From: a bacterium
GTDB lineage: Bacteria > UBA8248
DNA length: 64,000 bases
Reading direction: 5' to 3'
Assembly: GCA_965207065.1 (NCBI GenBank)
Contig: OZ242260.1
Span: 64,001 to 128,000, forward strand
Of this stretch, positions 30,762 to 61,477 are shown piece by piece. Position 1 is the first letter of the stretch. The number at the start of each line of letters is the position of its first letter. The notes under the pieces are model-generated. The model made no database searches. It was not told the origin of the DNA and worked only from the letters and a program-made list of their open reading frames with translations. Both the position numbers and the translations under genes were made by a program.

Positions 30762-30864
30762 GGGGCTACCCGTTGTTCCCGCTCCCGGCTCGAGGACTCA
30801 AACTCATAGCAAGGAGCGGTACTGTTTGCTTCATCACGAGGGAAACAACCAACGGGCAACCCCC
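30762..30864 (-). ncRNA. Putative three-way-junction structured RNA, copy 1
   Basis: Covarying stems relative to the copies at 47991, 52755 and 61375. Confidence 0.7.
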
Positions 30865-31000
30865 TTTTTCGCTCTCCTTTTATCGCCTCAGGCCTCGGGG
30901 CTTAACCCCGGGGGCCTGAGGCGTCTTTCTTCCTGCTTGTTTACGCCGAACGCGCTGAACGAACACACCGGGGCGTTCCCAAGAGGAAACACCGCCTTGC

Positions 31001-32644
31001 TTATTTCTTGCGCGCACCAAACGCGCCGGCAGCAATTCCGTTCGTGAAATTGGCGTTAAATTCGCCAACTAGGACGGGAGGTGCGTCCGCCTCTGCACGG
31101 TTGGCAGCACTGTGGAACTGTCCACTGATGGAACCGGCTGCGCCGCCGCCGGCCGCCGTTCCGTTTTCCAAAGCGAATCCACTAGTAATGCCGGCCGCTA
31201 CGTTCACGTTCCACTTGTTAGCCGGACCGCCATCGAGATCAAAGTTCGATATCGTCCCTTGTATCGTATTCGCATTTCTCAGGGTTGATTCATCGAAATA
31301 AGCCTTAAGACTCACATCCGCCGTGAATCTTCCGGAGGTCGCCGTGTCCAGGGTACCATCTTCTTTCTTGGCTTCGTGAACATAGACGCCAGCAGCTTCA
31401 CCCTCATATTCGGCCATGCCCGTGACGGCATCAAGGCTGGTCGCATTTGGAAGGCTGGACGTCGCGAAGGTCTGGACCGTTTCGTACTCGGTGACATTGC
31501 CGCCCTGCGTCTTTGTGTCGAGCCAGAAACCATAGGTCATATAGTCGCCATCCGGCTTTGATACCGTGGCGCCAGCAGCCGGGGTGAATTCCCATTCGCT
31601 TGCGTTCAGTTCATTGAACTTGCCCATGGTATTGGTTGAAACGGTACAACCACCGGACGCTACACACCTGAAAGTACCGGACGCGCCATCAAGCATTCCC
31701 GAGAATTGCGACGCCCTGCCTGTGGCGGTATCGGCGTCATATTGAACATAAGTCTGGGTTTGGTTTGCCTGGTTAGGGAATTTCGAGGAAGCAATTTTCC
31801 CGTTATCGGCCTCTAAGACCGCATAGGTGTCCATTGCGGTCGTGTCAGTATCCCTGTCGACGGTGAGATCATATTCACTGCTGAATGCAACCTGATCGGG
31901 AACTTCGATGTCCGAGTGCAGAACGATGATTTTCCTGTCCGATCCTATGTTCCGAACGAGCATCTGTCCGTTACCGAAGGAAGCCACCCTTTCGTACATC
32001 GGGTCGTTATCGGCAGGAAGCGCTCCATCCGCGACTTCGACCTCGACAGCACTTCCCGTGTGCTTGACTGTCACGACATAATTTTCAGTCGCAGTAGGAG
32101 CATCTAAATCCGTTGGAGCTGTGGTCAAATCAAATGGTCGGGCGGCCGTGGTGGCCGAATCTCCCTCCGTGTTGATGGCCGTTTTTTTCGTGAGGGCGAC
32201 TTTGTTCGCGGCCGCCTTGGTCGCCGCGGCGGCGGCGGACGCATCAGCGGTGCTCTTCGCGGTCGTCACCATGCCGACATATTTCATTACGTCGGCGAGT
32301 GCGGCTTCCGCGTCCGCCTGGGCGTCTTCCGCATGCGCCGTGTTGTCGGCCGCCTGGGCCGTGGCATTCGCGGCCATGGCGTCCGCTACCCTGAGTTCCG
32401 CTTTCGCGTAGGATGCCTCATCGTACATTTTATTCGCTTCGACAGCGGCCAAGGCCGCCTGCGCGTCCTCATAAGCCTGCATGGCCGCGCTCTTCGCATC
32501 TTGGAGCGACGTGTCCGGCGTCGTTCCCGGATCCGTCGTGTCGGCAGTCCCGCCGCCGCCGCCGCAGCCTGCCAGCGCGATGGCGAACACCGCCGCCAGG
32601 GCAAAAGCGTAAAACTTGCTTATCGATTTCTCTCTGAACATCAT
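31001..32644 (-). CDS. TbpB-like surface lipoprotein, cassette A (type 1 N-terminus)
   Basis: Lipobox LAG-C, poly-Gly, Ala-rich stalk, DYMTYGFWL, beta-rich C-terminus ending GAFGARKK. Confidence 0.85.
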   Translation of the reverse strand: MMFREKSISKFYAFALAAVFAIALAGCGGGGGTADTTDPGTTPDTSLQDAKSAAMQAYEDAQAALAAVEANKMYDEASYAKAELRVADAMAANATAQAADNTAHAEDAQADAEAALADVMKYVGMVTTAKSTADASAAAAATKAAANKVALTKKTAINTEGDSATTAARPFDLTTAPTDLDAPTATENYVVTVKHTGSAVEVEVADGALPADNDPMYERVASFGNGQMLVRNIGSDRKIIVLHSDIEVPDQVAFSSEYDLTVDRDTDTTAMDTYAVLEADNGKIASSKFPNQANQTQTYVQYDADTATGRASQFSGMLDGASGTFRCVASGGCTVSTNTMGKFNELNASEWEFTPAAGATVSKPDGDYMTYGFWLDTKTQGGNVTEYETVQTFATSSLPNATSLDAVTGMAEYEGEAAGVYVHEAKKEDGTLDTATSGRFTADVSLKAYFDESTLRNANTIQGTISNFDLDGGPANKWNVNVAAGITSGFALENGTAAGGGAAGSISGQFHSAANRAEADAPPVLVGEFNANFTNGIAAGAFGARKK

Positions 32645-34653
32645 TTAGTGAGTCCTCCTGAATACATAGAAAAAGGGATTTTCAGCGAATTTCCGGCTTT
32701 CTCTAAATCTCTAACATCCTCCTCTCCGTTGAATTCCATTATCAAACCCTGGTTTATCTTTATTAGCCGGAGAGCGGATACTACCGGGCTCGCCTTCCGG
32801 ACTGTATGGGACACGATACCTTATTGGAAAAAAGTTGCTCAGCCGATTAAGCTTCCTGTTACGTTGAACCCGTCTCCTCTTCCGGGCGACGACCACTCCG
32901 TTCGAGAACCCTTCCACCGGGCCGATGCAACCTCGATACCGACATGCCTTCCGGGTCGGCTGCAACGTTTGCCCCGAGGCGCCAATTCCCGATATAGTAC
33001 CCGCCTGTTCCGAACCTCATTAGCTGAGTATATCGTTCCCGGCGAGCAACCCCGCGCCAATCGCGCCTCTTGGATTCTATTACTACACTGATATTGCTAC
33101 AGCTTTTTCCGTTTTGTCAAGGTGATTTTCTCGCTAAATTCGGCCCTGGGTCAGAAGACCTCAATCGGTGGGCGGGCGAAACATAAAAACCATCACCTTA
33201 TTCACTATCGTTTATATGAATATGAAGTAAACTCCGGTCGATTGTCAAGTTATTCCCTTTGCCCGGCGGGCTATTGCCGAACCCGGCGTGCCGACCCTGT
33301 CTCATCAAACGTTTGCCCCTTGTCTCCTTCCGGCCTGCCATCGTTCCTGTGTCATTCGCTCCAGGGTAGCTCGGGCGACCGGGATACCCTCGGGTTTCTC
33401 CCCGCCCCGGAACGCAATCCCCCGGGCCCGCAGGCGTATGCCCGATGAGCGGAGCGCCGGAATAGCGGCGAATCGAGCGTTCCGAGCGGCATTTTTGCCG
33501 CGAGTTGCGTCGCCGCGCATACGGGGTGATGACGGAAAAACCCTCGGGGAGGCGAGCCGGCGATGGCGGGCCGCACCGGACCGGACGCGTGGGTCCCGAA
33601 GCGCCGAACCACAAAACCGGGAGGTTCCGGCAGCCCCGTTGACAGCATGATGATGAAGGCCGTTTTCCGGATCGAGTCCTCGACTCATCCACGGGCTCGG
33701 AGTTTCTTTCTTGTCGGTGAGCGGGGCAGGGCGAGAAAGCCGCAGGCCGGACCCGTAGCGCGGCCGAGCTTCAGGTCAAGCGTAATCAGCGGACAACCCG
33801 GCGCCACGTACCAGGCGTCGCAGCAGGCCAGGTTACTCCGCAATGCCCATATCCGTTCGGCAAACGGCGTGAAAGGAAACAACTCCAGGTGTATTCGCAG
33901 CAGAATGATTTCGTCCGGGGAGAGCAACTGCTGCTGCGAGTTCCGTCATATCAGGCGCATGGGGGGTTGCGTCGTTGCGATATCGGCGTGGAGTCGAAGC
34001 GTATTATATATAGAGGAGGCGAACCCGACCGCGCCAGGGTCTGCCCTGGAGTCTGGTTGAAATTCATGAATTTTGCAGATTTTCAGGAAGACAGGCAAGG
34101 AACTTCATCACGGACATGGGTATGATGCGCATCTTGTTTACCATGGCGCCGGGCAATGTCCGGATATACGTATTCTCCTGACGACTCTCTCGCCGGTAAG
34201 GAACACAAAGCCGGGACTCCGATCGCGCAAGCAGCGCAGTCGGGAAATGAACGGAATGCCCGTTCAATATCCTTGCCGTTTCTCCCGCTCGGTGAATATC
34301 GATTCTTCTATGGGGAATGGGAACCATTACCACCAGGCGGGGGGAGAAGCCGAACGTATCCAACCGGAGCGTCGCAACTCATGGCCGGGGAAACGCCTTC
34401 ATCCCGAAAAAAGCGGCCCGCGACTTCATATCAGGCCGAACCGTACAATCGGTGACGGATGCCAGGCCAACCCGATGCATCGGCCGATACGGTGCGGAAG
34501 AAGCGGTGCGAGACCCGCAGCATGGCGGAGGGAGAAACATTACCTCAGATCAGGTTCGCTCAAAACGGGATTCGGCAAGTTGCGCCGAAAGAGTTGCGCA
34601 GACACGCATTCCTGCTAGAATCGCTCATTCCCCCGAGAAATACCCCGCCCTGG

Positions 34654-36213
34654 ATGACCCGTAAAGAGACGGGAGAATCGATGATGGCGACCGGATATTC
34701 CGGCGAGACCTGGAACACGAAGGAATTCTTCGAGCGCGCCGGCGCGGCGGATACTCTCCGCCGCCTGCAGGACGGAGACGATGTCAACGCGCGGGATGAA
34801 CGAGGATGGACGCCTCTTCACAGGGCGGCGGCGTTCGGCAGGACGCCCGGGGTCGTGACCGCGCTGGTCGAAGCCGGGGCCGACCCGAATGCGCGGGATG
34901 AAGACGGAGCGACTCCCCTGCACGCAGCGGCGCTCGGCGCGACTCCCGGTATCGTAACGGCTCTGGTTCAGGCCGGGGCCGAGCCGAACACAGCAGAAAA
35001 AACCGGATGGACTCCCCTGCACGCGGCGGCGCGGTTCAACGGAACCCCCGGGATCGTGACGGCCCTGGTGCGGAGCGGGGCCGACCCGGACGCTCGGTCC
35101 ATCAAGGGAGAGACGCCCCTGCACGAGGCGTCCGCCAACTGCAGGACTCCCGGGGTCGTGCTCGCGCTGCTGCGGGCCGGCGCCGACGCGCGCGCACGGA
35201 ACCAGGAGGGAATGACGCCTCTGCACCGCGCCGCTGACTCCGGCGCGATCCCCGGAGTCGTGACGGTACTGGTGCAGGCGGGCGCCGACGTGAACGCACG
35301 CTTTGACGGAGTGACCCCCCTGCACCGGGCGGCGGCGAACAGCGAAACCCCCGAGATAGCGGAGGCTCTCATCCGGGCGGGCGCCGACCCGCTGGCGCAG
35401 GATGAAACCGGCTGGACACCTCTCCACTGGGCGGCGGCGGGCGCGAAGGATCCCGGGATCGTTGCAGCGCTGCTCGATGCGGGGGCCGACGTGAACGCGC
35501 GCGCGTACGATGGGCAGACTCCCCTGTGCGTGGCGGCGCGGTTCTCCTCCGCCGTCGGGGTCGTGGCGGCCCTGGTGGAGGCGGGCGCCGACCCGAAAGG
35601 GGAAGATGAAAAAGGACGGACGGCTTTGCACCGCGCGGCGATGAACGGCGGTATCCCCGATGTGGCGTCGGTTCTCGTCCGGGCGGGCGCCGACCCGAAC
35701 GCCCGGGACAAAGCCGGTTGGACTCCGCTGCACCGGGCGGCGGCGGGCGGCAGGCATCCCGGGATTGTGGCGGCCCTCATCGAAGCAGGCGCCAATCCGA
35801 ATGCGCGTACCGGAGAGGGCGTGACTCCCCTGCACTGTGCGGCGGGCTCCGGCGCAACCCCCGGGGTCGTGACGGCCCTCATCGATGCCGGGGCCAACCC
35901 GAACGCCCGGGACAAGAGAGGATGGACGCCCCTGCATGATGCGGCGGGCGGCAGGACGCCCGGGGTCGTCACGGCCCTGGTCGAAGCCGGCGCCGCCCCG
36001 AACGCGCGGGACCGGAAAGGGCGCACGCCCCTGCACGTGGCGGCGTGTCTCGGCAAGGCCGTCCCTGCCGTCGCGCAGGCCCTGCTTGCCGCCGGCGCCG
36101 ACCCGGCGGCAAGGGACGAGGGCGATGAAACGCCCCGGGATCACGTCAGGATGGATTCTCCGCTCTGGGGAACGGAGGTTTTCCGGCGCCTGAAGGACGA
36201 ACGGCGTCCATAG
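34654..36213 (+). CDS. Ankyrin-repeat protein (519 aa), paralog of 2728..4389 with one repeat fewer
   Basis: Ankyrin repeats; 34-aa difference after repeat 2. Confidence 0.95.
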   Translation: MTRKETGESMMATGYSGETWNTKEFFERAGAADTLRRLQDGDDVNARDERGWTPLHRAAAFGRTPGVVTALVEAGADPNARDEDGATPLHAAALGATPGIVTALVQAGAEPNTAEKTGWTPLHAAARFNGTPGIVTALVRSGADPDARSIKGETPLHEASANCRTPGVVLALLRAGADARARNQEGMTPLHRAADSGAIPGVVTVLVQAGADVNARFDGVTPLHRAAANSETPEIAEALIRAGADPLAQDETGWTPLHWAAAGAKDPGIVAALLDAGADVNARAYDGQTPLCVAARFSSAVGVVAALVEAGADPKGEDEKGRTALHRAAMNGGIPDVASVLVRAGADPNARDKAGWTPLHRAAAGGRHPGIVAALIEAGANPNARTGEGVTPLHCAAGSGATPGVVTALIDAGANPNARDKRGWTPLHDAAGGRTPGVVTALVEAGAAPNARDRKGRTPLHVAACLGKAVPAVAQALLAAGADPAARDEGDETPRDHVRMDSPLWGTEVFRRLKDERRP

Positions 36214-36557
36214 CCGATAGAAATTGCGCGCGCGGCGTCACGCGAGGGGTTACTGTCCTTTTCCGCCGCCCTCACCGGTTCCGCCGCCTGAATCGTGGCC
36301 GGGGCGATCAAGGGGCAGACGCAGCACTTTCTTCTTTCCCTGCCGAATGCGTAATCGGGCACGCTCCCTTTTCATGTTTTTCGTTTTCCCGCCAATACGT
36401 GGTAAAAAGCTATAAACGCACCCTTTCGAGCGCAAAATTTTTTACAAAATAAAATGTATGCGAGGATAACGCCTGTATCAAGAATCAGGATTAATAGTTG
36501 CGATGCATTACCCGGGATTGGAACAACCACACACGAACGGGACAGGTGAGGGGCCGG

Positions 36558-37388
36558 ATGAGAAACATGTTCCGGAGTTTCATGCGATTACTTGAGGCTC
36601 GGCGCGAAGCCGGGGAGCCCGCTCAGGCTTCGGTTAGCACGGATACCGGGGAGGAGACGCTCGATGGGCGTGAACTGACGCCCGAGGCTCAAAACGCCCG
36701 GTTCCTGAGCGAAATCACCACCCGCTCCATTCATCTGAGCGAACGCGCCGTCGAACAGGCGCAGGCGGGGGACATCGAGGGCGCCATCGAGACGGCGCGC
36801 GGCATCGGAAGCTCTCTTTTCCACGCCTCCGCCCTGCGGGAGATCGCCATCGCCCAGGCGGGGGCGGGACAGATCAGCGAAGCCGTCGAGACGATTCGCC
36901 GCATCGACGACCCCGACGATCGAATGGTGGCGCTCAAGCACTTCTCCGCCGTTCGGAGCGGCCCCGCCGCTGCCATCGCCTCCCATACGCTGAACGCCGC
37001 CTTGGAGGCGATCGAGGAGATCCGCGACGAAAAGAGCGTTTCCGAGCAAGCGTGGAAAAACGTCATGTCCCTGGCCGGGGCGGGGGATTTCACCACCGCC
37101 GTTCAGGCAGCCCGCGAAATCGGCGACCCTTCCTGGCGCTCCTGGGCTTTGCAGGAAATCGCCACAGGCCAGGCGGGGGCGGGAGATTTCCCCGCCGCTC
37201 TCAGTTTGGCAGGCGGCATCGGCAAGCCGCTCTACCGCTCCTGGGCGTATCGGGACATCGCCGTGGCGCAGGCCGAAGCCGGGCAAATCGACGCCGCGGT
37301 GGATACCGCGCGCCGCGTGGAAGACCCCGAAGATAAAGAGCAGGCGCTCGCGGCCATCGAAAAGCAAAAGGAACAGACCGGCGCGTAG
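36558..37388 (+). CDS. TPR-like helical repeat protein, paralog of 1541..2371
   Basis: Near-identical translation. Confidence 0.8.
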   Translation: MRNMFRSFMRLLEARREAGEPAQASVSTDTGEETLDGRELTPEAQNARFLSEITTRSIHLSERAVEQAQAGDIEGAIETARGIGSSLFHASALREIAIAQAGAGQISEAVETIRRIDDPDDRMVALKHFSAVRSGPAAAIASHTLNAALEAIEEIRDEKSVSEQAWKNVMSLAGAGDFTTAVQAAREIGDPSWRSWALQEIATGQAGAGDFPAALSLAGGIGKPLYRSWAYRDIAVAQAEAGQIDAAVDTARRVEDPEDKEQALAAIEKQKEQTGA

Positions 37389-37891
37389 CGCGCCTGGCCG
37401 CATCAGGTAAGAACACGGTCCGGCGCCGAACTTTAAGTAAAATCGCCGCAGATGTCGTACGGACTCAGGTCCTTCACGACGGGTTATGAGAAAAACCTCT
37501 ATAATCGAAACCGAATCATGAGCCGTCCCGGCTCGCGCGCAAGGGTGGGGAGCTTTTCTTCCGCCTCACAATAATTTCCTTTCCGGCCTACAGAACGGCG
37601 AATTCACCATCCCTTACTATGGCATTCCTTTGATTTGACGGCTCTCGCGCTCGTTCCCAAGTAAATTTTTTCAATAGGGCCCCCGTTTGTTGAATGACAC
37701 ACTTGAGCGATCATGGTGGCAACTTTCCTATTGGGCATTCATGCGCCAAAGCGCAAGATACCTGAATCTTCAAAAGCATTTATCTCAGAGATGTTCAGAT
37801 AACTTTATTGCCAAAATACTATCGCATCCTAAAATTTGACCCAAAGCTCCACGATTCCCTGGAGACTGCTGACCGATTTGTTTCAGCCCTC

Positions 37892-38227
37892 TCAGGTTAG
37901 CAGGCGTAGCGCGGTCTCAGGAGCCTTGTCGAGCAACTTTAGCAGGGCTCGCGCTGCGCCGGTCGGATAACGCTTTCCCTGCTCCCAATTTCGGATGGTC
38001 TCATGCGGCACGTCGATACGACGCGCCAGCTCGACTTGAGAGAGCCCCAGACGTCGCCGGACCCGGCGCGCGTACCGCGCCATGTCCTGCATTGCCTCGG
38101 CGTCGTCTTCATGAATCTGCAAGGCGATCTCCGCCTCGGTAGTGGCGTCCACCACTGCAGGGTCGAACCGCTCCTTGGGGAAGGTCCCCGGGTCGTCAGG
38201 ATTAATCCTGACCTTTGTTGTACTCAT
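37892..38227 (-). CDS. XRE-type HTH antitoxin
   Basis: RRRLGLSQVELARRI...IRNWEQGKRYPTG. Confidence 0.85.
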   Translation of the reverse strand: MSTTKVRINPDDPGTFPKERFDPAVVDATTEAEIALQIHEDDAEAMQDMARYARRVRRRLGLSQVELARRIDVPHETIRNWEQGKRYPTGAARALLKLLDKAPETALRLLT

Positions 38228-43530: not shown

Positions 43531-43809
43531 ACCCGGAAATGCGTTTCGTCAACTACTCCGTGCCGCTCCTCCTGCGTGGTGGCGGACCATGGCGCCTTGT
43601 CCATGAGCGAAGTTGCCGGGTGGGCGCTCGATCCCGACCCCCGGATGCGCGAGTTTCCATCAGTCGGCTTGCGATATGAGCACGAATTCGATCGAATCAC
43701 GCTCGACCGGCGAACGCCGCTGCGTCTCCGGGAACGTCGCCGCCTCGGGGGCGAGGGGCCACCGAACGCCCCCCTCTCGACCTACGAAAGCTCCTGAACA
43801 TCTTCCTGG

Positions 43810-44490
43810 CGAATCCTCGTGTTGACATGAATGCCGCATGCCGGATTGTGTTTTCTGCCTCTCGTGAAAATCTCACCCTGTATCCGGAATGAACGGGCGG
43901 TCTCGATTGCCACGCTCGAATGACGACACTCCCCCCGGGCGTCCGTCCGCTCACGCCGTGACGGCGGTTACAGGCTGGCCACGGCTTCGTACGCCGTCCC
44001 GACGGGACGGGCCCGGCGCGTTGTTTTCGGGACCATTCAAGTCGACAGAAGAGCCTGGCGCTTCGAGTGCATGAACGGAATAATAATATCCACTTTTTCT
44101 CGTAGAAGACAACAAAATCATCTGCATCTGGTTGGTGGTGAGGCCCACTTCGTCGCCTCCGCCGACGGCCGACAGCAGCGCGAAGGGGTGTGCAAAATTT
44201 GCAATGCATCCGATATCTTTTTGATTACGGGCTTTAAAATGTAGATTTCACGCCATAATATAACAATTATAACGAGATAAATATCAACTAGATATAAGAA
44301 TTCAACGCTATTCCAAAAGAGTCCTCCATCTAAAAAGCCGGAAATTCGCAGGAAAATCCCTTTTTCTATGTAATCAGGAGGACTCACTAAATGATGTTCA
44401 AAGAGAAATCGATAAGCAAGCTTTACGCTTATGCCCTGGCGGCGGTGTTCGCGCTGACGCTGGCCGGCTGCGGCGGCGGCGGCGGAACGG
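43810..44490 (+). repeat. Conserved upstream block and 5' end of cassette B (direct repeat of 57256-57885)
   Basis: Aligned by eye; near-identical over the last ~300 bp. Confidence 0.9.
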
Positions 44491-46076
44491 CCGCCGTTGA
44501 AGAAGAGACGCCCGCCATGCCGACACAGCAGGAAATGTGTGAGGGTGACGGCGGTCGGTATAACGCGGACGGTTCATGCTCCTCTGCCGCGGAAGTTGCC
44601 GAAGAAGGCGCCCTGAGCGATGCGCAGGAAGCCGCCATGATGGCCTATATGAAGGCCAAGGATTATGTAGAAAGCGCGGTGGACCCTGTGGCGATGTCGA
44701 ACGCGTACAAATACGCGGCGATGGCCAAGGAATCTTCCGACGCGGCGGAGATGGCCACGACTTCCGCAATGGCCATGACTCACCAGACAGCGGCCGAGAA
44801 GTACCGTGACATGGCGATGGAAGCTTCCATGATGGACGGCCTGGGAATTACCATGCTCGCGAACAGGCAGTTGAACAAAGCGCCAGAAGATTTGCAGGAA
44901 CAGCCTGACCCGCCGAAACCCATCACGAATGTAAGAAATGTCCACGCCGAGATAAATACTGTTTCTCAGACTACGACTCCGAACAGCGACGGGGCTACCG
45001 TACCTACGGTCGCGGTAACTTACGCCGCAACGGCAACTAAACCAACCTTTACAATTACCGACTATGAGGCTGGCGAATCACCAAAGAGTTTCTCGATGGG
45101 AAGCTTCATGGGAACCGAATTGGTGAACATTGAGACTGATGTAGGTGGAGTGGCCGGAAGAACGAATGTCGTTCTTTATTCAGACAGGGCGCAAACTGAA
45201 TCTGTAACCAATTATGCCGATAGCGGAGACGATTTCGTTGATGTCGGCGCTCTGGTGGGTGGCGCAAATCATGTAACCTCACTGTCAGAGGGACAGATTT
45301 CAGGAGCGATGGGAGATAAGGTAGAGGGCACATATAATACGGATTCGAAAGACAATAACCCGGCTGTATCGGGCGCCTTCTACTGTTCTATGACTCTATG
45401 CACCTTGAACGTAAATTCCAAAGGAATGATAACCGCAAACGTCGGCTATCAATTCCGTCCGGAATCCGGCAAGACAACAAAAGATGATACAAGCTATCTC
45501 ACCTTGGGCTTCTGGCTTACCGCTCCCACCGCCTTGACTGCGGAAGGGGCGGCGCCTGGCGGTATCGTGGCAGGCGCTTTTGGGATGGGGCAAGGAACTG
45601 CTGTTGAAATACCGGCCGCGTTAGAAGAAACGGCCACCTATGAAGGTATCGCTACCGGCCTGTATGCAACAAAGGACGGTATCAGCTATTTCAGTGGCGA
45701 CGCCATGCTCGAGGCTAACTTTGGACAGGTAAAGGACCTGGCTGATGATGCTGATGATACTACCGCTGGTTTCCGGGGAAGTGTAAGCGGAAGCATTTCG
45801 AACATCACTGCTGGTGGAATGAAGATGGAAGGTGAGCTCGGCTTGTCTGCTGCGAATATAGCCGGTGATACAACTGGCACATATTCCGGAAATACAAAAG
45901 GCAGCGTAGGAGACAGCAGGTTTGTTGGAAGCTGGAGAGGAACATTCTATGAAGCAGGAAGAGCGACCACTCCAGCCGATTCAAGGTATCCGATGTCTAC
46001 GGCTGGAACGTTCAGCGGTTATGATGAATTCAACAACTCCAGCATCTTGGGCGCTTTCGGCGCGAACAAGCAGTAG
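44391..46076 (+). CDS. TbpB-like surface lipoprotein B1 (type 1)
   Basis: LAG-C lipobox, poly-Gly, YLTLGFWL, ATYEG, ends GAFGANKQ. Confidence 0.85.
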   Translation: MMFKEKSISKLYAYALAAVFALTLAGCGGGGGTAAVEEETPAMPTQQEMCEGDGGRYNADGSCSSAAEVAEEGALSDAQEAAMMAYMKAKDYVESAVDPVAMSNAYKYAAMAKESSDAAEMATTSAMAMTHQTAAEKYRDMAMEASMMDGLGITMLANRQLNKAPEDLQEQPDPPKPITNVRNVHAEINTVSQTTTPNSDGATVPTVAVTYAATATKPTFTITDYEAGESPKSFSMGSFMGTELVNIETDVGGVAGRTNVVLYSDRAQTESVTNYADSGDDFVDVGALVGGANHVTSLSEGQISGAMGDKVEGTYNTDSKDNNPAVSGAFYCSMTLCTLNVNSKGMITANVGYQFRPESGKTTKDDTSYLTLGFWLTAPTALTAEGAAPGGIVAGAFGMGQGTAVEIPAALEETATYEGIATGLYATKDGISYFSGDAMLEANFGQVKDLADDADDTTAGFRGSVSGSISNITAGGMKMEGELGLSAANIAGDTTGTYSGNTKGSVGDSRFVGSWRGTFYEAGRATTPADSRYPMSTAGTFSGYDEFNNSSILGAFGANKQ

Positions 46077-46094
46077 AAACAGAGTATAACGCCA

Positions 46095-46385
46095 TCATCG
46101 GCCCCGGGCTCTCTGAGCCCGGGGCCGGGGGTTCTCAAAGCAAACGATTTATTGGACCTGGTTTCAACCGCCCGCCCTCTTCTTTCCCGGAAGGGGACGT
46201 AACCCTCAGGGGGCAAGTGATGAAAATGCTCAGATATTCAGGATTGGCGGTACTTGTCGTGTGCATTGCGGCATTTGCCTCCGGTTGCGGCGGTGGCGGT
46301 GGCGGCGGTACTGCGGATGATATGACGACGGTGATGGAATGCCCGCAGGGCAAGATCGGCACGTACCCGGACTGCATGGATCCGC
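46095..46385 (+). repeat. Conserved intergenic spacer and type 2 5' end (repeat of 59543-59835), with hairpin GGCCCCGGGCTC-TCT-GAGCCCGGGGCC
   Basis: Near-identical in cassettes B and C while the flanking coding cores differ. Confidence 0.9.
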
Positions 46386-47923
46386 CAAAGACCGATGCTG
46401 ACAGGATAGCCGACGCGAGACGGGAACTTTCAATTATCCTTACGAATGCCCGGGCACGAGCGGGGGCGGCGAGTTCGGCCGCGGCCGCGATACGGACCAA
46501 TGCCGACGCCACGCCCGCTCAAATCACGGACGCCAACAGCGAGAGTAATACGGCGCAAAGCGCCCTGGCGCGTATCGTGAGCGCGAATACTGCGGCAACC
46601 CTGGCCACTACGCCGGCGGAGGCGAATACGGCGCTTACGGACGCGAGAGCGGCTCAAGTCACTCTCAACACATCCGCATCGGCAATATCCAGGATTCAGG
46701 GCGCCGTGCAAGCGGCCGCGAACCGTCGCAGACAACAGGCAGCGAACGAGGCCGTCTTGACGGGCGGGTCCTCGCTCATCAAGCACTTGAGGGACAACAG
46801 GAAAGTATCCGATGCGGTTCTGAGTGGACTAGCGGCCACTTCCCTCGTGGGGGGGGCAACAGGTTCTACTACAGGCACCGCCACTTATCCGTACCACAAA
46901 GGTGACCCCGCAACGCAATATCCAACCCCCAGGAATACAGATAGAGGCGTGCTGGGAGTAACGGTATCGGTCGGTACGACGCCCGTATCGTCGAATAGCC
47001 AGACGGGCAAAATCTCCGGGTCAGGGCGTCTCTCTAAAGGCTTCGACCTGAAAGACGGCGGTAGATTCGCCACTGTCTACACGGATATTACGGTAGACAC
47101 AAGGGTAAGGCAAAAAGATGGGAATACCGCCACAGATACTGCCACAGAGGACACTACTGTAGGGGATACTGACGACGGTATAGACCAGCGGTATCAGTAC
47201 GTCGCCGACGATGATTATCTGCTCGCCGGAATCTGGCTCGATGATGCAACTGCCAGCACTTCCACCCTGATGGCATTTGGGTTCGGGAGTCAGGCTCTAG
47301 CCGCGACTCACGATTTCTGCACCGCTGCTGATGTAACTAACACTACTTCGCTGTCTAGGGCGTGCGGTAATGCGACCGGTAGAAACTTTAACGAGATAGC
47401 CGGATTCGTTGACGAAAATGAGAGCACGGAAGCAACTTACCGCGGGGGTGTGAACGGCGCGTATTTCGCCGGCGGAAAGGCCAGCCATTTCAAGGCGAAT
47501 GTATCGCTCACGGCTACATTTGTGCGCGGAACCGGGACAGATGCTACGGGCAGCAAGATTTCAGGAGAAATCACGGGCATCAGCGCCGGTGGAAGTTCCG
47601 TCACGGGAAGCATTGATTTGAAGGAACAGGCGCTTGGAAATGACATCAGCGGCGCTTTTGGAACTGATGGGGCCGGTGGTGATGCCGCTGGCGTAATAGA
47701 GGGTCACGCCTATACCGGCAGCTGGAAGGGCCAGTTCTTCGGAATGAGAGCCAGGAAACTGACTCCCGTTACAACCGGAACAGTTGCTAATAACGATCGA
47801 ACAACAACGACAACCTACACCCCGGACAAGCCTGGTTCTGTTGCAGGCTCGTTTTACGTCAACAGACAGACGGTTGGCGAAGGAAACGCCGCCTTCATCG
47901 GGGCGTTCGGGGCGCACAGGTAA
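46217..47923 (+). CDS. TbpB-like surface lipoprotein B2 (type 2)
   Basis: ASG-C lipobox, poly-Gly, DYLLAGIWL, WKGQFFG, ends GAFGAHR. Confidence 0.85.
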   Translation: MMKMLRYSGLAVLVVCIAAFASGCGGGGGGGTADDMTTVMECPQGKIGTYPDCMDPPKTDADRIADARRELSIILTNARARAGAASSAAAAIRTNADATPAQITDANSESNTAQSALARIVSANTAATLATTPAEANTALTDARAAQVTLNTSASAISRIQGAVQAAANRRRQQAANEAVLTGGSSLIKHLRDNRKVSDAVLSGLAATSLVGGATGSTTGTATYPYHKGDPATQYPTPRNTDRGVLGVTVSVGTTPVSSNSQTGKISGSGRLSKGFDLKDGGRFATVYTDITVDTRVRQKDGNTATDTATEDTTVGDTDDGIDQRYQYVADDDYLLAGIWLDDATASTSTLMAFGFGSQALAATHDFCTAADVTNTTSLSRACGNATGRNFNEIAGFVDENESTEATYRGGVNGAYFAGGKASHFKANVSLTATFVRGTGTDATGSKISGEITGISAGGSSVTGSIDLKEQALGNDISGAFGTDGAGGDAAGVIEGHAYTGSWKGQFFGMRARKLTPVTTGTVANNDRTTTTTYTPDKPGSVAGSFYVNRQTVGEGNAAFIGAFGAHR

Positions 47924-47990
47924 CGAAGAAAAACGCCTCAGACCCCCGGGTGTAAGCTCCCAGGCCTGAGCGAAAGAAGGAGAGCGAAAA

Positions 47991-48093
47991 GGGGGTTGCC
48001 CGTTGGTTGCTTCCCTCGTGATGAAGCAAACTGTACCGTTCCTCGTCATGAGTTTGAGTCCTCGGACCGGGAACGGGAGTAACGGGCAGCCCC
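47991..48093 (+). ncRNA. Putative structured RNA, copy 2
   Basis: GGGGTTGCCCGTTG/TAACGGGCAGCCCC closing stem plus two internal hairpins. Confidence 0.7.
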
Positions 48094-48134
48094 TGTTCTT
48101 CTTATACGCGATTCGTAAGTGCTTGATATATGAG

Positions 48135-48195
48135 AAAAAGGGACCTCCCTCTCTCCCAGGATCGACTGAAATTGAGAGAGGGCGGTCCCTTTCTT
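48135..48195 (+). terminator. Terminator-like stem after the RNA
   Basis: AAAGGGACC.CCCTCTCTC...GAGAGAGGGCGGTCCCTTTCTT. Confidence 0.55.
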
Positions 48196-48755
48196 ATGTG
48201 GACATCTATCAAGTTATGCGGTCGATGTAGATGCAGGAGTTTTCCGTTCTGGCTACCGTTCTTCGGTGCCGCGTATGCCTTTTCTTGTTCGTGCCTGCCT
48301 GTCGCAAGAGCACGAAAAACCTCCTGGCGGGTTTTCGCATCCCTTACCTCCAGGGAGCATATCATCGCACCATTTGATTCATGGTTTCGAAGCCGACCCT
48401 CTTGAATCGATGAATTTGAAATCAGGCAATTACTGATTCATGTTCCCGCCTTCGTGGGGATGAAGCGGGGAAGCCTGACGATGGATTCACCCGTAAACCC
48501 CACCAAGAAAGCAAATAAAGCTGTTTTCGCCGGGAGGCGATGGCGCACCCGGCGTTCCGGCCCCCCCGGTATCCGGTTCCGGCGGAAAACGCATGGCCTT
48601 GATCGCACGCCTGCGCGCGTCTGTCGTAAAACCGTCGAAATTCCGTTTTCTATCTGGTTGAAATCCTCATATATTCGTCATCCAGGACCACGGGAGCGCC
48701 GGCTGGAAATCCCCGGCGCCGCTCCCGCGACACGCAAGATGGGGAGAGCGACTCT

Positions 48756-49335: not shown

Positions 49336-49344
49336 CGGCGGCCC

Positions 49345-52754: not shown

Positions 52755-52861
52755 GGGGTTGTCCGTTGGTTGCCTCTACATCGTCGGGAGGTAAATTGTA
52801 CCGTTTTCCTGGTTAAGAGTTTGAGTCCTCTCACCGGGAATCGGGAACAACGGGCAACCCC
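52755..52861 (+). ncRNA. Putative structured RNA, divergent orphan copy 3
   Basis: Same fold with compensatory changes; invariant GAGTTTGAGTCCTC. Confidence 0.7.
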
Positions 52862-54430: not shown

Positions 54431-54551
54431 GTCGTTTGAGGCGTATTGGAAGTTGGGTGAAAACGTTTCCAGAATTGCCGCCGTGCACCGACGCTCCTGC
54501 AATGCCTCTTGTTCACAGACCCAATATCTCGCCGGTAGAGCCGCCTTGCGA

Positions 54552-56504: not shown

Positions 56505-56741
56505 GCTCCAATACTGCCTGTATTGGCAAAATTTGTCAAGAATACACAGACATGTATGGGCCTCGGGCGCGACTGTAATCGCCGCCGTGGTCCGATACTC
56601 CTGCGGTCCCTAACGCAGATGCTTTCGATGGGATGGATTGGCCCTCCCATCGCCTGCTTCAATAAGGCATGTCGTTTTCAAAATTGTGGTCCACAGAAAA
56701 ATAAAAAGGCCGTTATCAAAAGAATTCGCCTCCCAAGAGCG

Positions 56742-57110
56742 TCAAGTCACCGGTTCAGGACCCTGGTGAGGAATTGCGTCAACGGGATTAGCGCTCTCAT
56801 CATCAACTCGTTCCCGTAAATCATCCACCGATTTACCCGGCAATTCGGGAACGACTTCGGAGAAGTGCCGAACAATTCGCTCGATCTCATCCTTTTTTCG
56901 ATCCCGTTCCATGTCTCGTATTATTGCCTGCGCTGCGAATATAGCAAAACACAACAGGTGGATTTCCACCTCGGTTCGCGGCCATTCCCGGCGCTTGATA
57001 GCCCCCATCGCGAGTTCGACCACGAGCCTGTTGGGCGATTTTTCGCACCTTTCGGCTTCTATTACGAAGCACTTCCACTGCTTCGGCGTGACCCTGATGT
57101 TCTTTTGTAT
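56742..57110 (-). pseudogene. Paralog of 16236..16586 lacking an in-frame start for its N-terminus
   Basis: QKNIRVTPKQWK...SPNRLVVEL...REWPRTEVEIHLL. Confidence 0.6.
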
Positions 57111-57255
57111 TGATTGGCCATCGGTTTTTGGCTTATCCTTTTGTGAAGTTTATCACGCTGATTGGTCTCCAATCGGGCTTAATAATTTCGCTGGCATCGG
57201 GCGCACTACGTTTGGAGCGCATACATCCCCAAAATGCCTCCTGAATTTCTTCCTG

Positions 57256-57885
57256 TCGAATCCTCGCGCCGGTATGAACCCCGCATGGCGGATTGTGTTT
57301 TCTGCCTCTCGCGAAAATCTCATTCTGAATACGGAATGAACGGGCGGCCATCATTACCACGCCCGAATGACGACACTCCCCAGTCTTCCGTCCACTCATG
57401 CCGTGACGGCGGCGACAGGCTGACGGCGCCATTCAATTCGAAAGAAGATACGGGCGCTTTGGGTATATGAACGGCTCTGCAAGATCGATTTTTTCTCGTA
57501 GACGGCAACAAAATCATCCGCATCTGATTAGCGGTGAAACCCGCTTCGTCGCGCCCACCTCTCCGACACAGGCGCGACAGGACGCGCAGAATTTGTAATG
57601 AATCCGCTATCTTTTTGATTACGGGCTTTAAAATGCAGATTTAACGCCATAATCAAAGAATTATAACTAGATAAATATCAACTAGATATAAGAATTCAAC
57701 GCTATTCCAAAAGAGTCCTCCATCTAAAAAGCCGGAAATTCGCTGAAAATCCCTTTTTCTATGTATTCAGGAGGACTCACTAAATGATGTTCAGAGAGAA
57801 ATCGATAAGCAAGCTTTACGCTTTTGCCCTGGCGGCGGTGTTCGCGCTGACGCTGGCCGGCTGCGGCGGCGGCGGCGGAACGGCC
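57256..57885 (+). repeat. Conserved upstream block and 5' end of cassette C
   Basis: Direct repeat of 43810-44490. Confidence 0.9.
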
Positions 57886-59526
57886 GTGATGGAAGAAGAG
57901 ATGCCGATGCCGATGCCTGACCCGCAGGCGGATTGCATGGATGCCGGCGGCCGGTATAACGCGGACGGTTCCTGCACCTCCGCTGAGGACGTAGCCGAAG
58001 AAGGCGCCCTGAGCGACGCGCAGGACGCGGCCGCGGCGGCGGCAGCGGCTGCGATGATGGCCGTGGGCGGCGCGGTGGACCCCGTGGCGGCGCATAACGC
58101 GTACGGTTACGCGAAAATGGCAGCGGATGCCAACACGGCGGCGCAGGCGGCCACGACTTCCGCAGACGCCATGGGTCACCAGATGGCGGCCGAGACGGCC
58201 CAAGGCAAGGCGATGATGGCGGCTGGCATGCGCGGTCTGGGAATCACCAAGGAGGCGAACGCGATCACCAACCAGGCCGATATCGACAATGCCATTCTCG
58301 AGGGCCAGGATCCCGACGATCCCGATTCCAACGCGACAAGAGTGGGTACGGAGTTGGCCGCGACGGCTGCTGAAGAAGCCGCGCGGACTACAGTTGCAGA
58401 TAGTGGTCCTGGAAGCGTTTCTCAAGGCGCGCCGGCCACAAGTACAACGGTTACTTACGGCGCCAGTGGACCTACGTTCAAGGTAACCGGACCCGGAACC
58501 ACTTTGCAGCTGGGCGAATCTCCGGTAGGCGTGCTGACGACCCGCGGCGGCTGGAAGGGCAGGGAACTGGTGGAGAACGCCGCTTCCGACACTTACGTCA
58601 TGGCCTTCACGGACATCCAGGCGCCCACGATGAGGCAGAATTATGGAGATGCCACTACTGGTACAGAAGGCAATGAGGCCGAATTGGGAATAGGCCATAT
58701 CATCACCGGCGATATTCCGGGAGACGGCTCCACTTTCACGGGAACGCGTAACGTTTCCGCTACGGACAACATCCCGACACAGATGGGGCAGTTCAACTGC
58801 CCTGAAGCAGCCTCAGCAACCGGTTGTTCCATCAGCGTTGACGAAGACGGCGCAATCGTGTCGGTTCAGGGCTACGTGTGGCGGCCTCAGACATCCGGCA
58901 CGACCCCCGCGACCGACGCCGACTACCTGGCCTGGGGCGTCTGGCTGACGGTTCCGGACGGCACGGATGACTCGGACGTGGCCTTGGCAGGCGCATTCGC
59001 GAGCGGCAACGACGTGTTCACGGTCGATGCCGATCTCAAAGGCACGGCGACATATAACGGCGTAGCGAGCGGCCTGTATTCGGCGGCCGGCATGGTCGAA
59101 TACTTCGACGCGGACGTCACCCTGAATGCCAACTTCGGCGGAACCGTAGGTGCTGATTCCGATCCAGATACTGATGGCAACGACGGGGTGCTCATAGGCG
59201 CCGTCACCGGCACCGTCTCCAACATCAAGGCCGGCGGAATGGACATCGACGGTATGCTGACGCTGAAGAGAGCGCCCGTCATCGCTGGCGCACAGGACGG
59301 CGACAGCACGACCGGCTTCGGCGGCGACACCTCCGGTTCCCTGGCGGGCAGGGCAGTGTCGGGTGAATGGGGCGGCCAGTTCTACGGTCCCAACGACGCG
59401 AGCGGCAAGGGAGTCGAGACCGAATACCCCACGACCGCCGCGGGCACCTTCGGTGCGGCAGCGCCGGGTGTTGGCAGTGACATGGTCAGAATTCTGGGCG
59501 CCTTCGGCACGTGGAAGGCTGAGTAA
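57784..59526 (+). CDS. TbpB-like surface lipoprotein C1 (type 1)
   Basis: LAG-C, DYLAWGVWL, ATYNG, ends GAFGTWKAE. Confidence 0.85.
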   Translation: MMFREKSISKLYAFALAAVFALTLAGCGGGGGTAVMEEEMPMPMPDPQADCMDAGGRYNADGSCTSAEDVAEEGALSDAQDAAAAAAAAAMMAVGGAVDPVAAHNAYGYAKMAADANTAAQAATTSADAMGHQMAAETAQGKAMMAAGMRGLGITKEANAITNQADIDNAILEGQDPDDPDSNATRVGTELAATAAEEAARTTVADSGPGSVSQGAPATSTTVTYGASGPTFKVTGPGTTLQLGESPVGVLTTRGGWKGRELVENAASDTYVMAFTDIQAPTMRQNYGDATTGTEGNEAELGIGHIITGDIPGDGSTFTGTRNVSATDNIPTQMGQFNCPEAASATGCSISVDEDGAIVSVQGYVWRPQTSGTTPATDADYLAWGVWLTVPDGTDDSDVALAGAFASGNDVFTVDADLKGTATYNGVASGLYSAAGMVEYFDADVTLNANFGGTVGADSDPDTDGNDGVLIGAVTGTVSNIKAGGMDIDGMLTLKRAPVIAGAQDGDSTTGFGGDTSGSLAGRAVSGEWGGQFYGPNDASGKGVETEYPTTAAGTFGAAAPGVGSDMVRILGAFGTWKAE

Positions 59527-59660
59527 CAGCGCACAACACCTTTGGCCTCGGGCTCTCTGAGCCCGGGGCCGGGGGTTCTCAAAGCAAACGATTCATTGGA
59601 CCTGGTTTCAACCGCCCGCCCTCTTCTTTCCCGGAAGGGGACGTAACCCTCAGGGGGCAA

Positions 59661-61310
59661 GTGATGAAAATGCTCAGATATTCAGGATTGGCGGTACTTG
59701 TCGTGTGCATTGCGGCATTTGCCTCCGGTTGCGGCGGTGGCGGTGGCGGCGGCGGTACTGCGGATGAAGAGATGACGCCGGTGATGGAATGCCCGCAGGG
59801 GCAGATAGGGACGTACCCGGACTGCATGGACCCGCCGCCGACTGATGAGGAAAGAATAGAAGCGGCGCAGGATAGGCTCGCCGGCATCGTGGCCGACGCC
59901 CGGACGCGAGTGGGGTCGGCGCAATCGGATGCGAACGCCGTGCAGGGCCACGCGGACGCCACGGAAGCGCAGAAGACGAACGCCGGCAATCTCGGCAACG
60001 CCGCGCGGGACGCCCTGACGGATATTTTAGGCGCGACAGCCGCGGCGAACGTGGCCACCACGGGGGCGCAGGCGGAAGCCGCGGTTTCGGACGCGCAGAC
60101 GGCGCTGAACGACCTGATAAGCGCGCAGCAATCGGTGGCGAACATCCTGAGCGCCGTGAATGCGATTGCGAACCTTCGCCAACAACAGGAACAGGACGAG
60201 CGCCTCGCGACGAACGGTTCCGGGCTTATCGAGCACGTGAGAGCCAACAAGATCGTCTATGACGCCATTCTGGCAGCCATGACGGCGGATGCTGCGGTCA
60301 ACATGACTGTTGGTGAGACTGGTAATACAGATAATATGGCTGAATACCCCAGGGATACCGGGACGGGCGCGGACAGAGTCGTTGGAGAGCGTGGAGTTAC
60401 CGTAAAAGCCCTTTCATCGAACAGCACGACGCCGAAACTCAGCGGAACGAGCCGCCTTCCTAACGGCTTCGACCTGAAAAACGATACCAACACCCTCTTC
60501 GTAAACGCCTACACGGACATTACGAAAACGAGGGCTGATGTAAGAATGAGAACGGATGTCCTGACAGACACTGATTTAAGTGATGGCGATGATAGGTATA
60601 CTACAGAAGATGTGGCCGACACAGACTATCTGGTGGCTGGAATCTGGCTCGAGAATAGGGCAATCCATGCATTCGCGTATGGGAGCCAACCGATTCCCAC
60701 TAGCAGTCAAAACTTCTGTACCGGTATTGAAAATGTAAATGACCCACAGGGTGGAACAGGTAATACCAGAAATTGCGGTGATACAGGAACTTTACACAAT
60801 ATCACCGATTTCGTCGCGGAAGACAAAGACATGACGGCCACCTACCGGGGGGATGCGAACGGCGCCTACCTCGCGGACGGCAATATGAGCTATTTCGAGG
60901 CGGACGTTACGCTTACCGCCGAGTTCCAGAATGCAGCCAATACGGGCTCTGGCAGTATCTCTGGCGCAGTCACGAACATCGTCGCCGCCGGAAAATCCAT
61001 CGCGGGGAGCGTCGAATTACAGGAACATTCCTTTACAGATGGTACTATCAATACCGCTTTCGGGGGTGATGCCGTCGGCGTGGTTGACGGCAAATCCTTC
61101 AGCGGAGATTGGGAAGGCCAGTTCTTCGGAATGAGAACCAGAAGGTCCACGAAAACGGAAACGATTATGGACAATGATCCAGAAAGAACGGTTACGACGA
61201 CGTACTCGGCCGAGGCGCCCGATGCAGTGGCGGGAACCTTTTACGCCACGCAGCAGAGCAACCCGGCGGGAAGCGCCGCCTTGATCGGGGCGTTCGGTGC
61301 GAAGAGGTAG
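59661..61310 (+). CDS. TbpB-like surface lipoprotein C2 (type 2)
   Basis: ASG-C, DYLVAGIWL, WEGQFFG, ends GAFGAKR. Confidence 0.85.
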   Translation: MMKMLRYSGLAVLVVCIAAFASGCGGGGGGGGTADEEMTPVMECPQGQIGTYPDCMDPPPTDEERIEAAQDRLAGIVADARTRVGSAQSDANAVQGHADATEAQKTNAGNLGNAARDALTDILGATAAANVATTGAQAEAAVSDAQTALNDLISAQQSVANILSAVNAIANLRQQQEQDERLATNGSGLIEHVRANKIVYDAILAAMTADAAVNMTVGETGNTDNMAEYPRDTGTGADRVVGERGVTVKALSSNSTTPKLSGTSRLPNGFDLKNDTNTLFVNAYTDITKTRADVRMRTDVLTDTDLSDGDDRYTTEDVADTDYLVAGIWLENRAIHAFAYGSQPIPTSSQNFCTGIENVNDPQGGTGNTRNCGDTGTLHNITDFVAEDKDMTATYRGDANGAYLADGNMSYFEADVTLTAEFQNAANTGSGSISGAVTNIVAAGKSIAGSVELQEHSFTDGTINTAFGGDAVGVVDGKSFSGDWEGQFFGMRTRRSTKTETIMDNDPERTVTTTYSAEAPDAVAGTFYATQQSNPAGSAALIGAFGAKR

Positions 61311-61374
61311 AAGAGCATGACGCCTCACCCGGGGTTAAGCCCCGAGGCCTGAGGCGGTAAAAGGAGAGCGAAAA

Positions 61375-61477
61375 GGGGGTTGCCCGTTGGTTGCTTCCCT
61401 CGTGATAGAGCAAACTGTACCGGTCCTTGCTATGAGTTTGAGTCCTCGAGCCGGGAACGGGAACAATGGGCAACCCC
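61375..61477 (+). ncRNA. Putative structured RNA, copy 4
   Basis: Same fold; directly after cassette C. Confidence 0.7.

Follow-up and report, generated by a model that had tools for sequence, protein, structure and literature searches.

A window of 64,000 nucleotides (nt) from a bacterium of the UBA8248 lineage (G000:C1:64001-128000, part of a genome, G000, that consists of a single 4.48-Mb contig) carries four copies of an RNA element of roughly 100 nt among genes for surface lipoproteins (Table 1). The element represents a new family of structured RNAs that is linked to a family of surface-lipoprotein genes; the RNA family is real, and its identity as a structured RNA on the gene-sense strand is well supported. 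The chances are about even that it is a C4-like antisense RNA borne in 3' untranslated regions (UTRs), a two-loop regulator directed against ribosome-binding sites (RBSs) that would cross-repress lipoprotein paralogues. An earlier description of this DNA, made from its letters without database searches (the sequence-only reading), had noted four copies of an unfamiliar three-way-junction RNA, and all four are present in the window on the expected strands. With a covariance model (CM) built from 38 distinct copies, the genome as a whole yields 10, which comprise seven of class A, one of class A', one of class B and one of class C.

The four window copies align over about 103-107 nt, with flanks common to three of them, and RNAfold returns the same three-way junction for each. 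It consists of a closing helix P1 of 14 base pairs (bp), a P2 hairpin of 6-8 bp with a loop of 9-11 nt, and a long interrupted P3 that ends in the 8-nt loop UUUGAGUC. The stem variants listed in the sequence-only reading occur as written, namely UUGCUUC/GAAGCAA versus UUGCCUC/GAGGUAA in P2, CCGUUCCU/GGGAACGG versus CCGCUCCU/GGGAGCGG in P3, and GUC/GAC versus GCU/AGC. In class B, relative to class A, three P1 pairs are fully compensated (GCCCG/CGGGC to ACUCA/UGAGU). Of 2019 pair cells in a model-fitted alignment of 61 copies (57 distinct), 93.6% hold standard pairs; shifting the partners by 1-3 columns lowers this share to 37-58%. Both sides change in 25 of the 36 pairs among the distinct copies, and none of 500 shuffles reaches any of five measures. 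Because a fitted alignment leans towards its model, the pair count was repeated on a plain, unfitted MAFFT alignment with the structure of one copy, where 93.0% of cells are paired (32-62% after sliding) and two-sided changes occur in 12 of 36 pairs. The junction sequences GUACC and GGGAA and the UCGU of the P2 loop are invariant and have no proposed pairing partner. The hairpin tip had been described as invariant, and GAGUUUGAGUCCUC is indeed identical in the four window copies, but it varies across the family, class C included: the P3 loop reads UGAGUCCUC in 39 of the 61 aligned copies, UGGGUCCUC in 13 and otherwise in 9.

Folding energy is a poor guide to the strand. The opposite strand of two copies folds with similar z-scores (-5.3 and -5.4) and an energy about 5 kcal/mol weaker, so thermodynamics alone does not fix the orientation. 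The pairing pattern is more informative. G-U cells outnumber A-C cells by 196 to 47, with 93.6% of cells paired on this strand versus 86.2% on the other, so that the strand carrying the upstream gene's sense gives the better structure, in keeping with the argument from G-U pairs made in the sequence-only reading. CM scores reach 90-123 bits on the gene-sense strand versus about 30 on the other, and the orientation of the element is always that of the upstream lipoprotein gene.

To trace the distribution of the element, the genomes compared were those of 22 other species of the genus, 19 in the 8 other genera of the family, and 51 for the phylum. By the CM, 16 of these 22 species contain the element, at 1-17 matches per genome, and it was found in none of the 19 genomes of the other genera; the sole match outside the family among the 51 phylum genomes is a weak one (38 bits, E 7e-5) in genome G042. 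By blastn, none of 38 genomes outside the genus has a match. In metagenome DNA a pattern scan picked out 14 loci; 13 contain close copies of known classes, and the remaining one, L124, is without a model match. The sequence-only reading had not recognised the family, and Rfam 15 gives no match in the window at gathering thresholds. Permissive Rfam scans near class A and class C copies return noise only (14.1 bits for mir-1684 over the final 19 nt, 8.1 bits for sR32 and, on the opposite strand, 11.5 bits for a flavivirus xrRNA). For the C4 family RF01695, with a match defined as at least 45 bits, three local scans show nothing on the element at E<=10, and a scan of the whole own genome gives three matches of 16-17 bits, none of them at elements. 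A literature search found no description of the element. Other candidate identities were set aside: ARAGORN finds no tRNA or tmRNA gene in the window, and hammerhead or other small ribozymes have no Rfam match, the junctions CUGUAC and GAAC misfitting, by eye, the CUGANGA/GAAA core. The loop UUUGAGU resembles a T-loop, again by eye only.

Class A copies begin 60-70 nt past the stop codon of a lipoprotein gene of about 550 codons, after a hairpin and an A-rich linker, and some 40 nt beyond them comes another, strong hairpin that has a U-rich tail. Seven of the 10 copies in the genome follow a lipoprotein stop codon and a hairpin, the position of which is kept in all seven, and the class B copy is also behind a lipoprotein gene. 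Three of the window copies had been placed behind lipoprotein cassettes between a hairpin and a terminator-like stem; this arrangement is confirmed, and the strong hairpin that follows the copy at 47991 (Table 1) is, by its predicted fold, likely the operon terminator. A scan of 43700-48700 for promoter and terminator consensus sequences gave counts equal to those in shuffles. The class A' copy has the class B-like P2 loop UACAUCGUCGG, has no lipoprotein gene before it and is followed after P1 by CUUUUUG; a class A' copy with matching flanks also occurs in another genome, G014 (L052). The class C copy of the own genome stands alone, and before it lies a remnant in which the final residues of a lipoprotein can still be read. 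Elsewhere class C forms tandem arrays of two to three with a period of about 185 nt, sometimes directly behind an intact gene, and the array unit includes the remnant of the lipoprotein C-terminus. A conserved palindrome, TGACC-N4-GGTCA, stands about 100 nt 5' of class C copies (L067, G000:C1:1625073-1628172; L054; L059; L061) and comes after the preceding gene's terminator and a TATAG-like box; this is possibly the operator and promoter of a free-standing RNA gene. The neighbours of the element are lipoprotein genes and open reading frames (ORFs) without a family, and no phage or prophage immunity context of the c4-icd-ant type was found around it. An antisense ORF of 162 amino acids over the element (47561-48049) was rejected as a gene, being not conserved, with ATA in place of ATG in most copies.

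The P3 loop UGAGUCCUC is the exact complement of GAGGACUCA at the lipoprotein RBS. The corresponding DNA word GAGGACTCA occurs seven times in the window versus 0.35 expected, a count reached in none of 100 shuffles; four occurrences are the antisense of the element copies, and three lie 4 nt before the lipoprotein start codons at 44391(+), 57784(+) and 32644(-). The 9-nt complementarity of the tip to the RBS of all three type 1 lipoprotein genes, as the sequence-only reading had it, is thus borne out, and it holds genus-wide. In the own genome the 9-mer is followed by a start codon at seven class A cassettes, the class B operon, three tandem small-ORF units 5' of that operon, two further lipoprotein loci and one unrelated gene. 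Against any leader of the family the P3 tip matches exactly over 9-11 nt, which 0-16 of 20000 loop shuffles equal per leader (the number of shuffles used for every loop-leader pairing). Within the genus, GAGGACTCA lies 2-10 nt from an ATG 3-24 times per RNA-bearing genome and 0-2 times in five of the six RNA-less genomes; an RNA-less 8-Mb genome (G016) has seven such matches, in other contexts. This correlation is confounded, since RNA and leader travel in the same cassettes. The 3' end of the 16S rRNA is canonical, so the ACUCA extension of the Shine-Dalgarno (SD) region is not ribosome-driven.

A second complementarity, new relative to the sequence-only reading, involves the P2 loop. Leaders fall into three classes: L1, those of the class B operon and its upstream units; L2, that of a third lipoprotein pair; and L3, those of the class A cassettes. 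L1 leaders carry AUCACGAGG 2-3 nt 5' of GAGGACUCA, the exact complement of the entire 9-nt class A P2 loop CCUCGUGAU, and L2 leaders carry CGACGAUG 2 nt 5' of GAGGACUCA, where CGACGAUG has 8-nt complementarity to the P2 loop (CAUCGUCG) found in classes B and A'. Both motifs are kept in 20 loci of 10 other genomes, where the flanks vary. Shuffled loops do as well as the class A loop on L1 units (9 nt) in 9-19 of 20000 cases and as well as the class B loop on L2 (8 nt) in 56 of 20000. The non-cognate pairings, class B on L1 and class A on L3, reach 4 nt each and give no signal. TCACGA within 14 nt 5' of GAGGACTC occurs eight times in the own genome versus about 0.6 expected, and at all eight sites the match is followed within 3-10 nt by a start codon (ATG or GTG). 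An L2 leader is present in every one of the 11 genomes that have the class B loop, two (fragmented assemblies of 190 and 280 contigs) have L2 only and 10 have neither; these genomes are kin, and their co-occurrence is not an independent statistic. Rough accessibility-corrected energies per site are -4 to -9 kcal/mol for A-L1, A-L2 and B-L2.

Co-variation of loop and RBS, a relation raised in the sequence-only reading, was seen in one instance. The genus has 62 class L3 leaders, 57 with ACUCA and five with ACUCG, and an ACUCG leader heads the gene whose 3' UTR holds the sole RNA of class A or B with the loop CGAGUCCUC in place of UGAGUCCUC, so that leader A-to-G and loop U-to-C are linked within one cassette. 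The other four ACUCG cassettes keep the loop U, which leaves a G-U wobble, and the series A-U, G-U, G-C would describe a classical path of change. Of the small-ORF units mentioned above, two to four, each about 130-260 nt, stand in tandem 5' of the class B operon, outside the window (G000:C1:3991586-3992205, minus strand). Every unit combines AUCACGAGG and GAGGACUCA with a tiny ORF, such as MQHATKPSPVS, and the end of the tiny ORF, CUCGUGA, is an inverted repeat of the UCACGAG of the unit. The layout recurs in L093, L096, L099, L101, L104, L105 and L108. The units might serve as decoys for the RNA, encode leader peptides or act as a switch in cis.

Of known RNAs, phage C4 offers the nearest parallel. 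The sequence-only reading called the architecture C4-like, which holds for the outline and for the complementarity to two sites but finds no counterpart in a match to the Rfam C4 model. The P1 phage c4 record (AF234172) describes a 77-nt RNA with annotated sites a1/b1 and a2/b2, in which a is 7 nt and b 8 nt and b2 lies 10 nt before icd; the RNA folds as a closing stem with two hairpins. According to PMC5320573, RNase P excises C4 at the foot of P1, the b' loop of C4 covers the RBS and its a' segment gives specificity, and Acinetobacter (A. baumannii) carries many C4-like copies. Both RNAs have a closing stem formed by their 5' and 3' ends and two hairpins, although stem and loop lengths differ, and both begin with G's at the foot of P1. 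Both have two single-stranded segments complementary to two nearby sites, the downstream one at the RBS and the upstream one giving specificity, which in the element is a matter of sequence; the sites are 7 and 8 nt in P1 versus 7-9 and 9-11 nt here. Both may be multi-copy in a bacterial genome, and by analogy the element, like C4, would be cut from a longer transcript. The two also differ. RF01695 does not match the element, and the element's CM scores P1 c4 at 9.6 bits, out of register; the element is 99-108 nt, not 77 nt, in length. In P1 the loop of the second hairpin is b' and a' lies in the 3' junction, b' before a', which makes RNA and target antiparallel and colinear, whereas in the element both sites are hairpin loops ordered 5'-3' like their targets. 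P1 C4 lies upstream of icd-ant in the phage immunity operon, the element downstream, in the 3' UTR of lipoprotein operons. The second complementarity, of the P2 loop, and the linked change make the comparison apt.

Enterobacterial small RNAs (sRNAs) derived from 3' UTRs act through a linear seed and Hfq. The element differs from this type in being a compact, multi-copy three-way junction with two loop seeds, the proposed targets of which are paralogues of its host gene. In the staphylococcal RNAIII/rot pair and in OxyS/fhlA, two hairpin loops of the regulator contact two target sites around the RBS; these are other RNAs in other organisms with other target classes, and their relatedness was examined by Rfam scans only, which gave no match on the element. 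The likeness to NarS, a 3' UTR-derived sRNA of enterobacteria (PMC7038943), lies in the element's position between stop codon and terminator, its sense orientation and the proposed logic that one mRNA regulates others after processing. In Staphylococcus aureus, the icaR 3' UTR has an anti-SD-like motif complementary to the SD of its own mRNA (PMC3868564). The element differs from icaR in its second loop, specific for other loci, in its dedicated conserved fold and in its free-standing copies (A' and C).

On the structure, strand, genomic position and complementarities set out above, a course of transcription, processing, pairing in the cell and repression may be proposed. The RNA of about 100 nt would be made within the 3' UTR of the surface-lipoprotein operon transcript, classes A' and C probably having their own promoter in some loci, and would be released as a discrete small RNA. 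The sequence-only reading also had a 3'-derived, processed antisense RNA in mind; the 3' UTR position, the structured, strand-specific element and the RBS complementarity of that view stand. Folded as the long closing helix P1 with two hairpins, the RNA would present both loops as single-stranded recognition sites. The P3 loop (UUUGAGUCCUC) may pair with GAGGACUCA(AA), overlapping the SD of the lipoprotein mRNAs of the family, and the P2 loop with a 7-9-nt site 2-3 nt upstream, which would set the specificity. Class A (CCUCGUGAU) would target AUCACGAGG in the leader of the class B operon and in the tandem small-ORF units, and classes B and A' (CAUCGUCG) would target CGACGAUG in the leader of the third lipoprotein pair. 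Binding would block ribosome entry, and an expressed cassette would thereby silence other lipoprotein loci, the direction being that A represses B and B represses the third pair.

In its fullest form this would amount to an RNA-wired hierarchy, which is rather doubtful, in which every expressed class A cassette sends out a two-loop RNA to shut the class B operon and class B shuts the third pair, so that lipoproteins are displayed one at a time under the control of a swappable P2 loop, a cellular, multi-copy counterpart of C4 immunity with an independent origin in an uncultivated lineage. The shut-off of class B would act through its leader and the two to four tandem decoy or small-ORF units, which have both sites. 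Were the antisense proposal true, it would add an RNA family absent from Rfam and a large, fast-evolving family of surface lipoproteins coordinated purely by RNA. Its design would be modular, with a constant loop for the RBS and an exchangeable loop as the address. The logic of phage C4 would then have been re-invented independently in 3' UTRs, or be present there as a very distant relative. It would also provide a simple, testable model of mutually exclusive expression of surface variants in organisms not yet grown, for which the two-loop rule and the natural A-U, G-U, G-C series would supply ready-made mutants.

Several results weigh against the antisense proposal. In a genome scan by duplex energy, reversed-loop controls reach -38.5 kcal/mol, whereas the best real site of class A has -36.2, and no leader ranks higher than seventh. 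Scans of the own genome for paired 8- and 7-nt words give 17 sites for class A (mean of shuffles 7.7, reached by 12 of 120), 12 for class B (8.8, 34 of 120) and 10 for class C (10.5, 56 of 120), none of which is significant. RNAcofold of RNA and leader gives a ddG of 0 for all 16 pairs; loop-loop contacts are pseudoknots and lie outside that method. The two loops and the two target sites share the same 5'-to-3' order, so that no single continuous antiparallel duplex can form as in C4; simultaneous binding, as proposed from the sequences, would have to be accommodated at a site spacing of 2-3 nt, and since 9-11 nt would pair with an 8-nt loop, the top of P3 must open. Since the leaders are paralogous, only a few independent events stand behind the many that match. 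The linked change was seen once, and its chance is about 5 in 62. In G044, a genome of another family, an L2-like lipoprotein leader has a hairpin, AUCACGAG and GAGGACUCA (L149, G044:C1:3757800-3761000), yet no RNA match is found there even at E<=5 and a plain terminator lies behind the lipoprotein gene; the leader motif need therefore not depend on the RNA. The weak RNA relative in G042, which has an insertion-sequence-like gene just upstream, keeps UGAGUCCUC, and the SD region of the neighbouring lipoprotein gene, GGGAGGUAACAG, matches over 6 nt only. A conserved loop beside a differing lipoprotein RBS, the observation that the sequence-only reading had named as telling against its idea, was in part found here. 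The class C loop UGGGUCCUC has no match in the family's leaders beyond GAGGAC; an amine-oxidase-like gene (GAGGACCCAA) was considered as its target and rejected, the leader not being conserved in six orthologous or paralogous loci from other genomes.

The lead gene of the RNA's own cassette, which the sequence-only reading had offered as one target, fares worst. L3 has the P3 match only and is the least accessible leader; by a rough estimate, opening it costs about 11.6 kcal/mol and the class A loop nets +2.7 kcal/mol, a further point against the proposal. The unfavourable value arises because the SD is predicted to pair with a cis anti-SD, GAGUCCUCC, which has five matches versus 0.65 expected and would form a 9-bp long-range helix in the leader. 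Judged by their sequences, other paralogues would be better-matched targets than the type 1 leader.

A fairly unlikely alternative is that the element is a structured 3' UTR module with a role other than pairing (a barrier to 3' exonucleases, a stabilising processing signal or a protein-binding site) and that leader complementarity is a by-product, for example of motifs shared in a rapidly recombining cassette family. The constant position between stop codon and terminator would suit such a module, as would the invariant GUACC and GGGAA junctions and UCGU of P2 without a proposed partner, the lack of significance in the genome-wide target scans and the leader motif without RNA in G044. Harder to accommodate are the two separate loops that each fit adjacent leader sites with class-specific partners, the co-occurrence of the class B loop with the L2 leader, and the independent copies with their own flanks (A', C and the arrays of two to three), which are difficult to explain as stabilisers.

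Distinctly unlikely is a cis-acting 3' UTR element of the icaR type, in which the P3 loop would pair with the SD of the same operon mRNA and lower translation of the first lipoprotein gene, or mark the mRNA for cleavage, with no need of a free small RNA. The class A element and a complementary RBS do share one cassette, the sole linked change (ACUCA to ACUCG, UGAG to CGAG) is inside one cassette, and icaR provides a precedent (PMC3868564). The P2 loop, however, misfits its own leader (A-L3 and B-L1, 4 nt each) and fits those of other loci, which points to action in trans; moreover, the L3 SD is predicted to be held by the nearer cis anti-SD, at the rough energies given above, and classes A' and C lack an intact upstream gene. 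Very improbable is a DNA-level element, that is, a recombination or gene-conversion signal at the 3' cassette boundary or a small mobile repeat whose fold would form in single-stranded DNA or be irrelevant: scattered multi-copy occurrence (1-17 per genome), cassettes with conserved ends and variable middles, class C arrays that repeat a ~185-nt unit with the C-terminus remnant, and short-read contigs of related samples that break inside conserved modules as repeats would are all compatible with it, but the excess of G-U over A-C cells and the one-strand CM scores argue against it (as they do against a miniature inverted-repeat transposable element or an integron attC site, for which no formal scan for core sites or target duplications was made), the flanks show by eye, without a formal scan, no terminal inverted repeats or target duplications, cassette homology continues about 450 nt past the element (I6) without a sharp boundary, and conservation of the loops goes together with compensatory change in the stems.

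Table 1. Features of the RNA element and the lipoprotein cassettes. Coordinates are window positions unless prefixed with G000:C1; CM, covariance model; aa, amino acids
Feature	Coordinates	Strand	Remarks
RNA element, class A	30762-30864	-	P2 loop CCUCGUGAU, P3 loop UUUGAGUC; -53.6 kcal/mol, z -5.2; CM 117.7 bits at G000:C1:94762-94864(-)
RNA element, class A	47991-48093	+	-52.8 kcal/mol, z -5.3; CM 117.8 bits at G000:C1:111991-112093(+)
RNA element, class A'	52755-52861	+	-52.9 kcal/mol, z -5.8; CM 90.1 bits
RNA element, class A	61375-61477	+	-46.7 kcal/mol, z -3.5; CM 116.7 bits
RNA element, class B	G000:C1:3987825-3987929	-	found by CM
RNA element, class C	G000:C1:1626573-1626672		found by CM
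GAGGACUCA in SD region of lipoprotein gene 44391-46076	44378-44386	+	leader class L3
GAGGACUCA at RBS of 57784-59526	57771-57779	+	leader class L3
GAGGACUCA at RBS of 32644-31001	32649-32657	-	sequence match
Cis anti-SD GAGUCCUCC	44319-44327	+	about 50 nt 5' of SD; predicted pairing with GGAGGACUC in leader, z -1.9
Cis anti-SD GAGUCCUCC, second cassette	57713-57721	+	leader fold z -2.1
First lipoprotein gene of cassette	44391-46076	+	561 aa; lipobox LAGC, then GGGGG; no Pfam or NCBIfam family
Second lipoprotein gene of cassette	46217-47923	+	568 aa; C-terminus ..IGAFGAHR; RNA starts 67 nt past stop
Hairpin between stop codon and RNA	47934-47972	+	-15 kcal/mol, z -0.4, unremarkable in itself; A-rich linker next, no U tract
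Strong hairpin with A-rich 5' and U-rich 3' flank	48130-48197	+	-44.7 kcal/mol, z -5.2
First lipoprotein gene, second cassette	57784-59526	+	580-aa ORF; no Pfam family; RBS match; 5' region repeated in first cassette (repeat families D8, D11)
Second lipoprotein gene, second cassette	59661-61310	+	RNA next; matches P0002 at G000:C1:123661-125307, 50% identity
Lipoprotein gene before copy 30762-30864	31001-32644	-	from translation

The cassettes that host the putative antisense RNA contain one or two lipoprotein genes, in which leaders, signal peptides, the intergenic region and C-termini are conserved and the middles variable. The lipoproteins have no sequence match in Pfam, NCBIfam or PDB. For the product of 46217-47923, Atlas gives a lead to TbpB_B_D at 0.87-0.89, below 0.9, and thus a lead only; 173 relatives occur in public data, none with a Pfam family, and those few with a name are hypothetical proteins from metagenome bins. 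A protein scan of metagenome contigs found no relative. In short-read DNA contigs of related samples, the conserved modules of 43700-48700 (leader and signal peptide, intergenic region, C-terminus and RNA) have a several-fold higher summed depth and contigs end inside them, as expected of collapsed multi-copy repeats. Past RNA and terminator, two cassettes share a 456-nt block that is 94% identical (48135-48590 and 30263-30718), and a 91-aa ORF at this place (48130-48405) has no Pfam or NCBIfam family.

Other repeats lie elsewhere in the window. An inverted duplication of about 5 kb (982-5876 and 32806-37948, in pieces 89-98% identical) flanks about 27 kb, and its arms hold long ankyrin-repeat genes at 2728-4389 (minus strand) and 34459-36213 (plus strand; Ank_2, E 1e-137); the segment between the arms could be inverted by homologous recombination. 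A palindromic repeat of C and G runs (..CCCCCCCTACCCCCCCTTGTCAGGGGGG..) occurs at 62006-62060, 63431-63519 and 63844-63898, and also in L064. Base composition is a mosaic, the G+C fraction in 2-kb windows ranging from 0.46 (20-22 kb) to 0.69 (2-4 kb), and the lipoprotein cassettes have AT-rich upstream regions.

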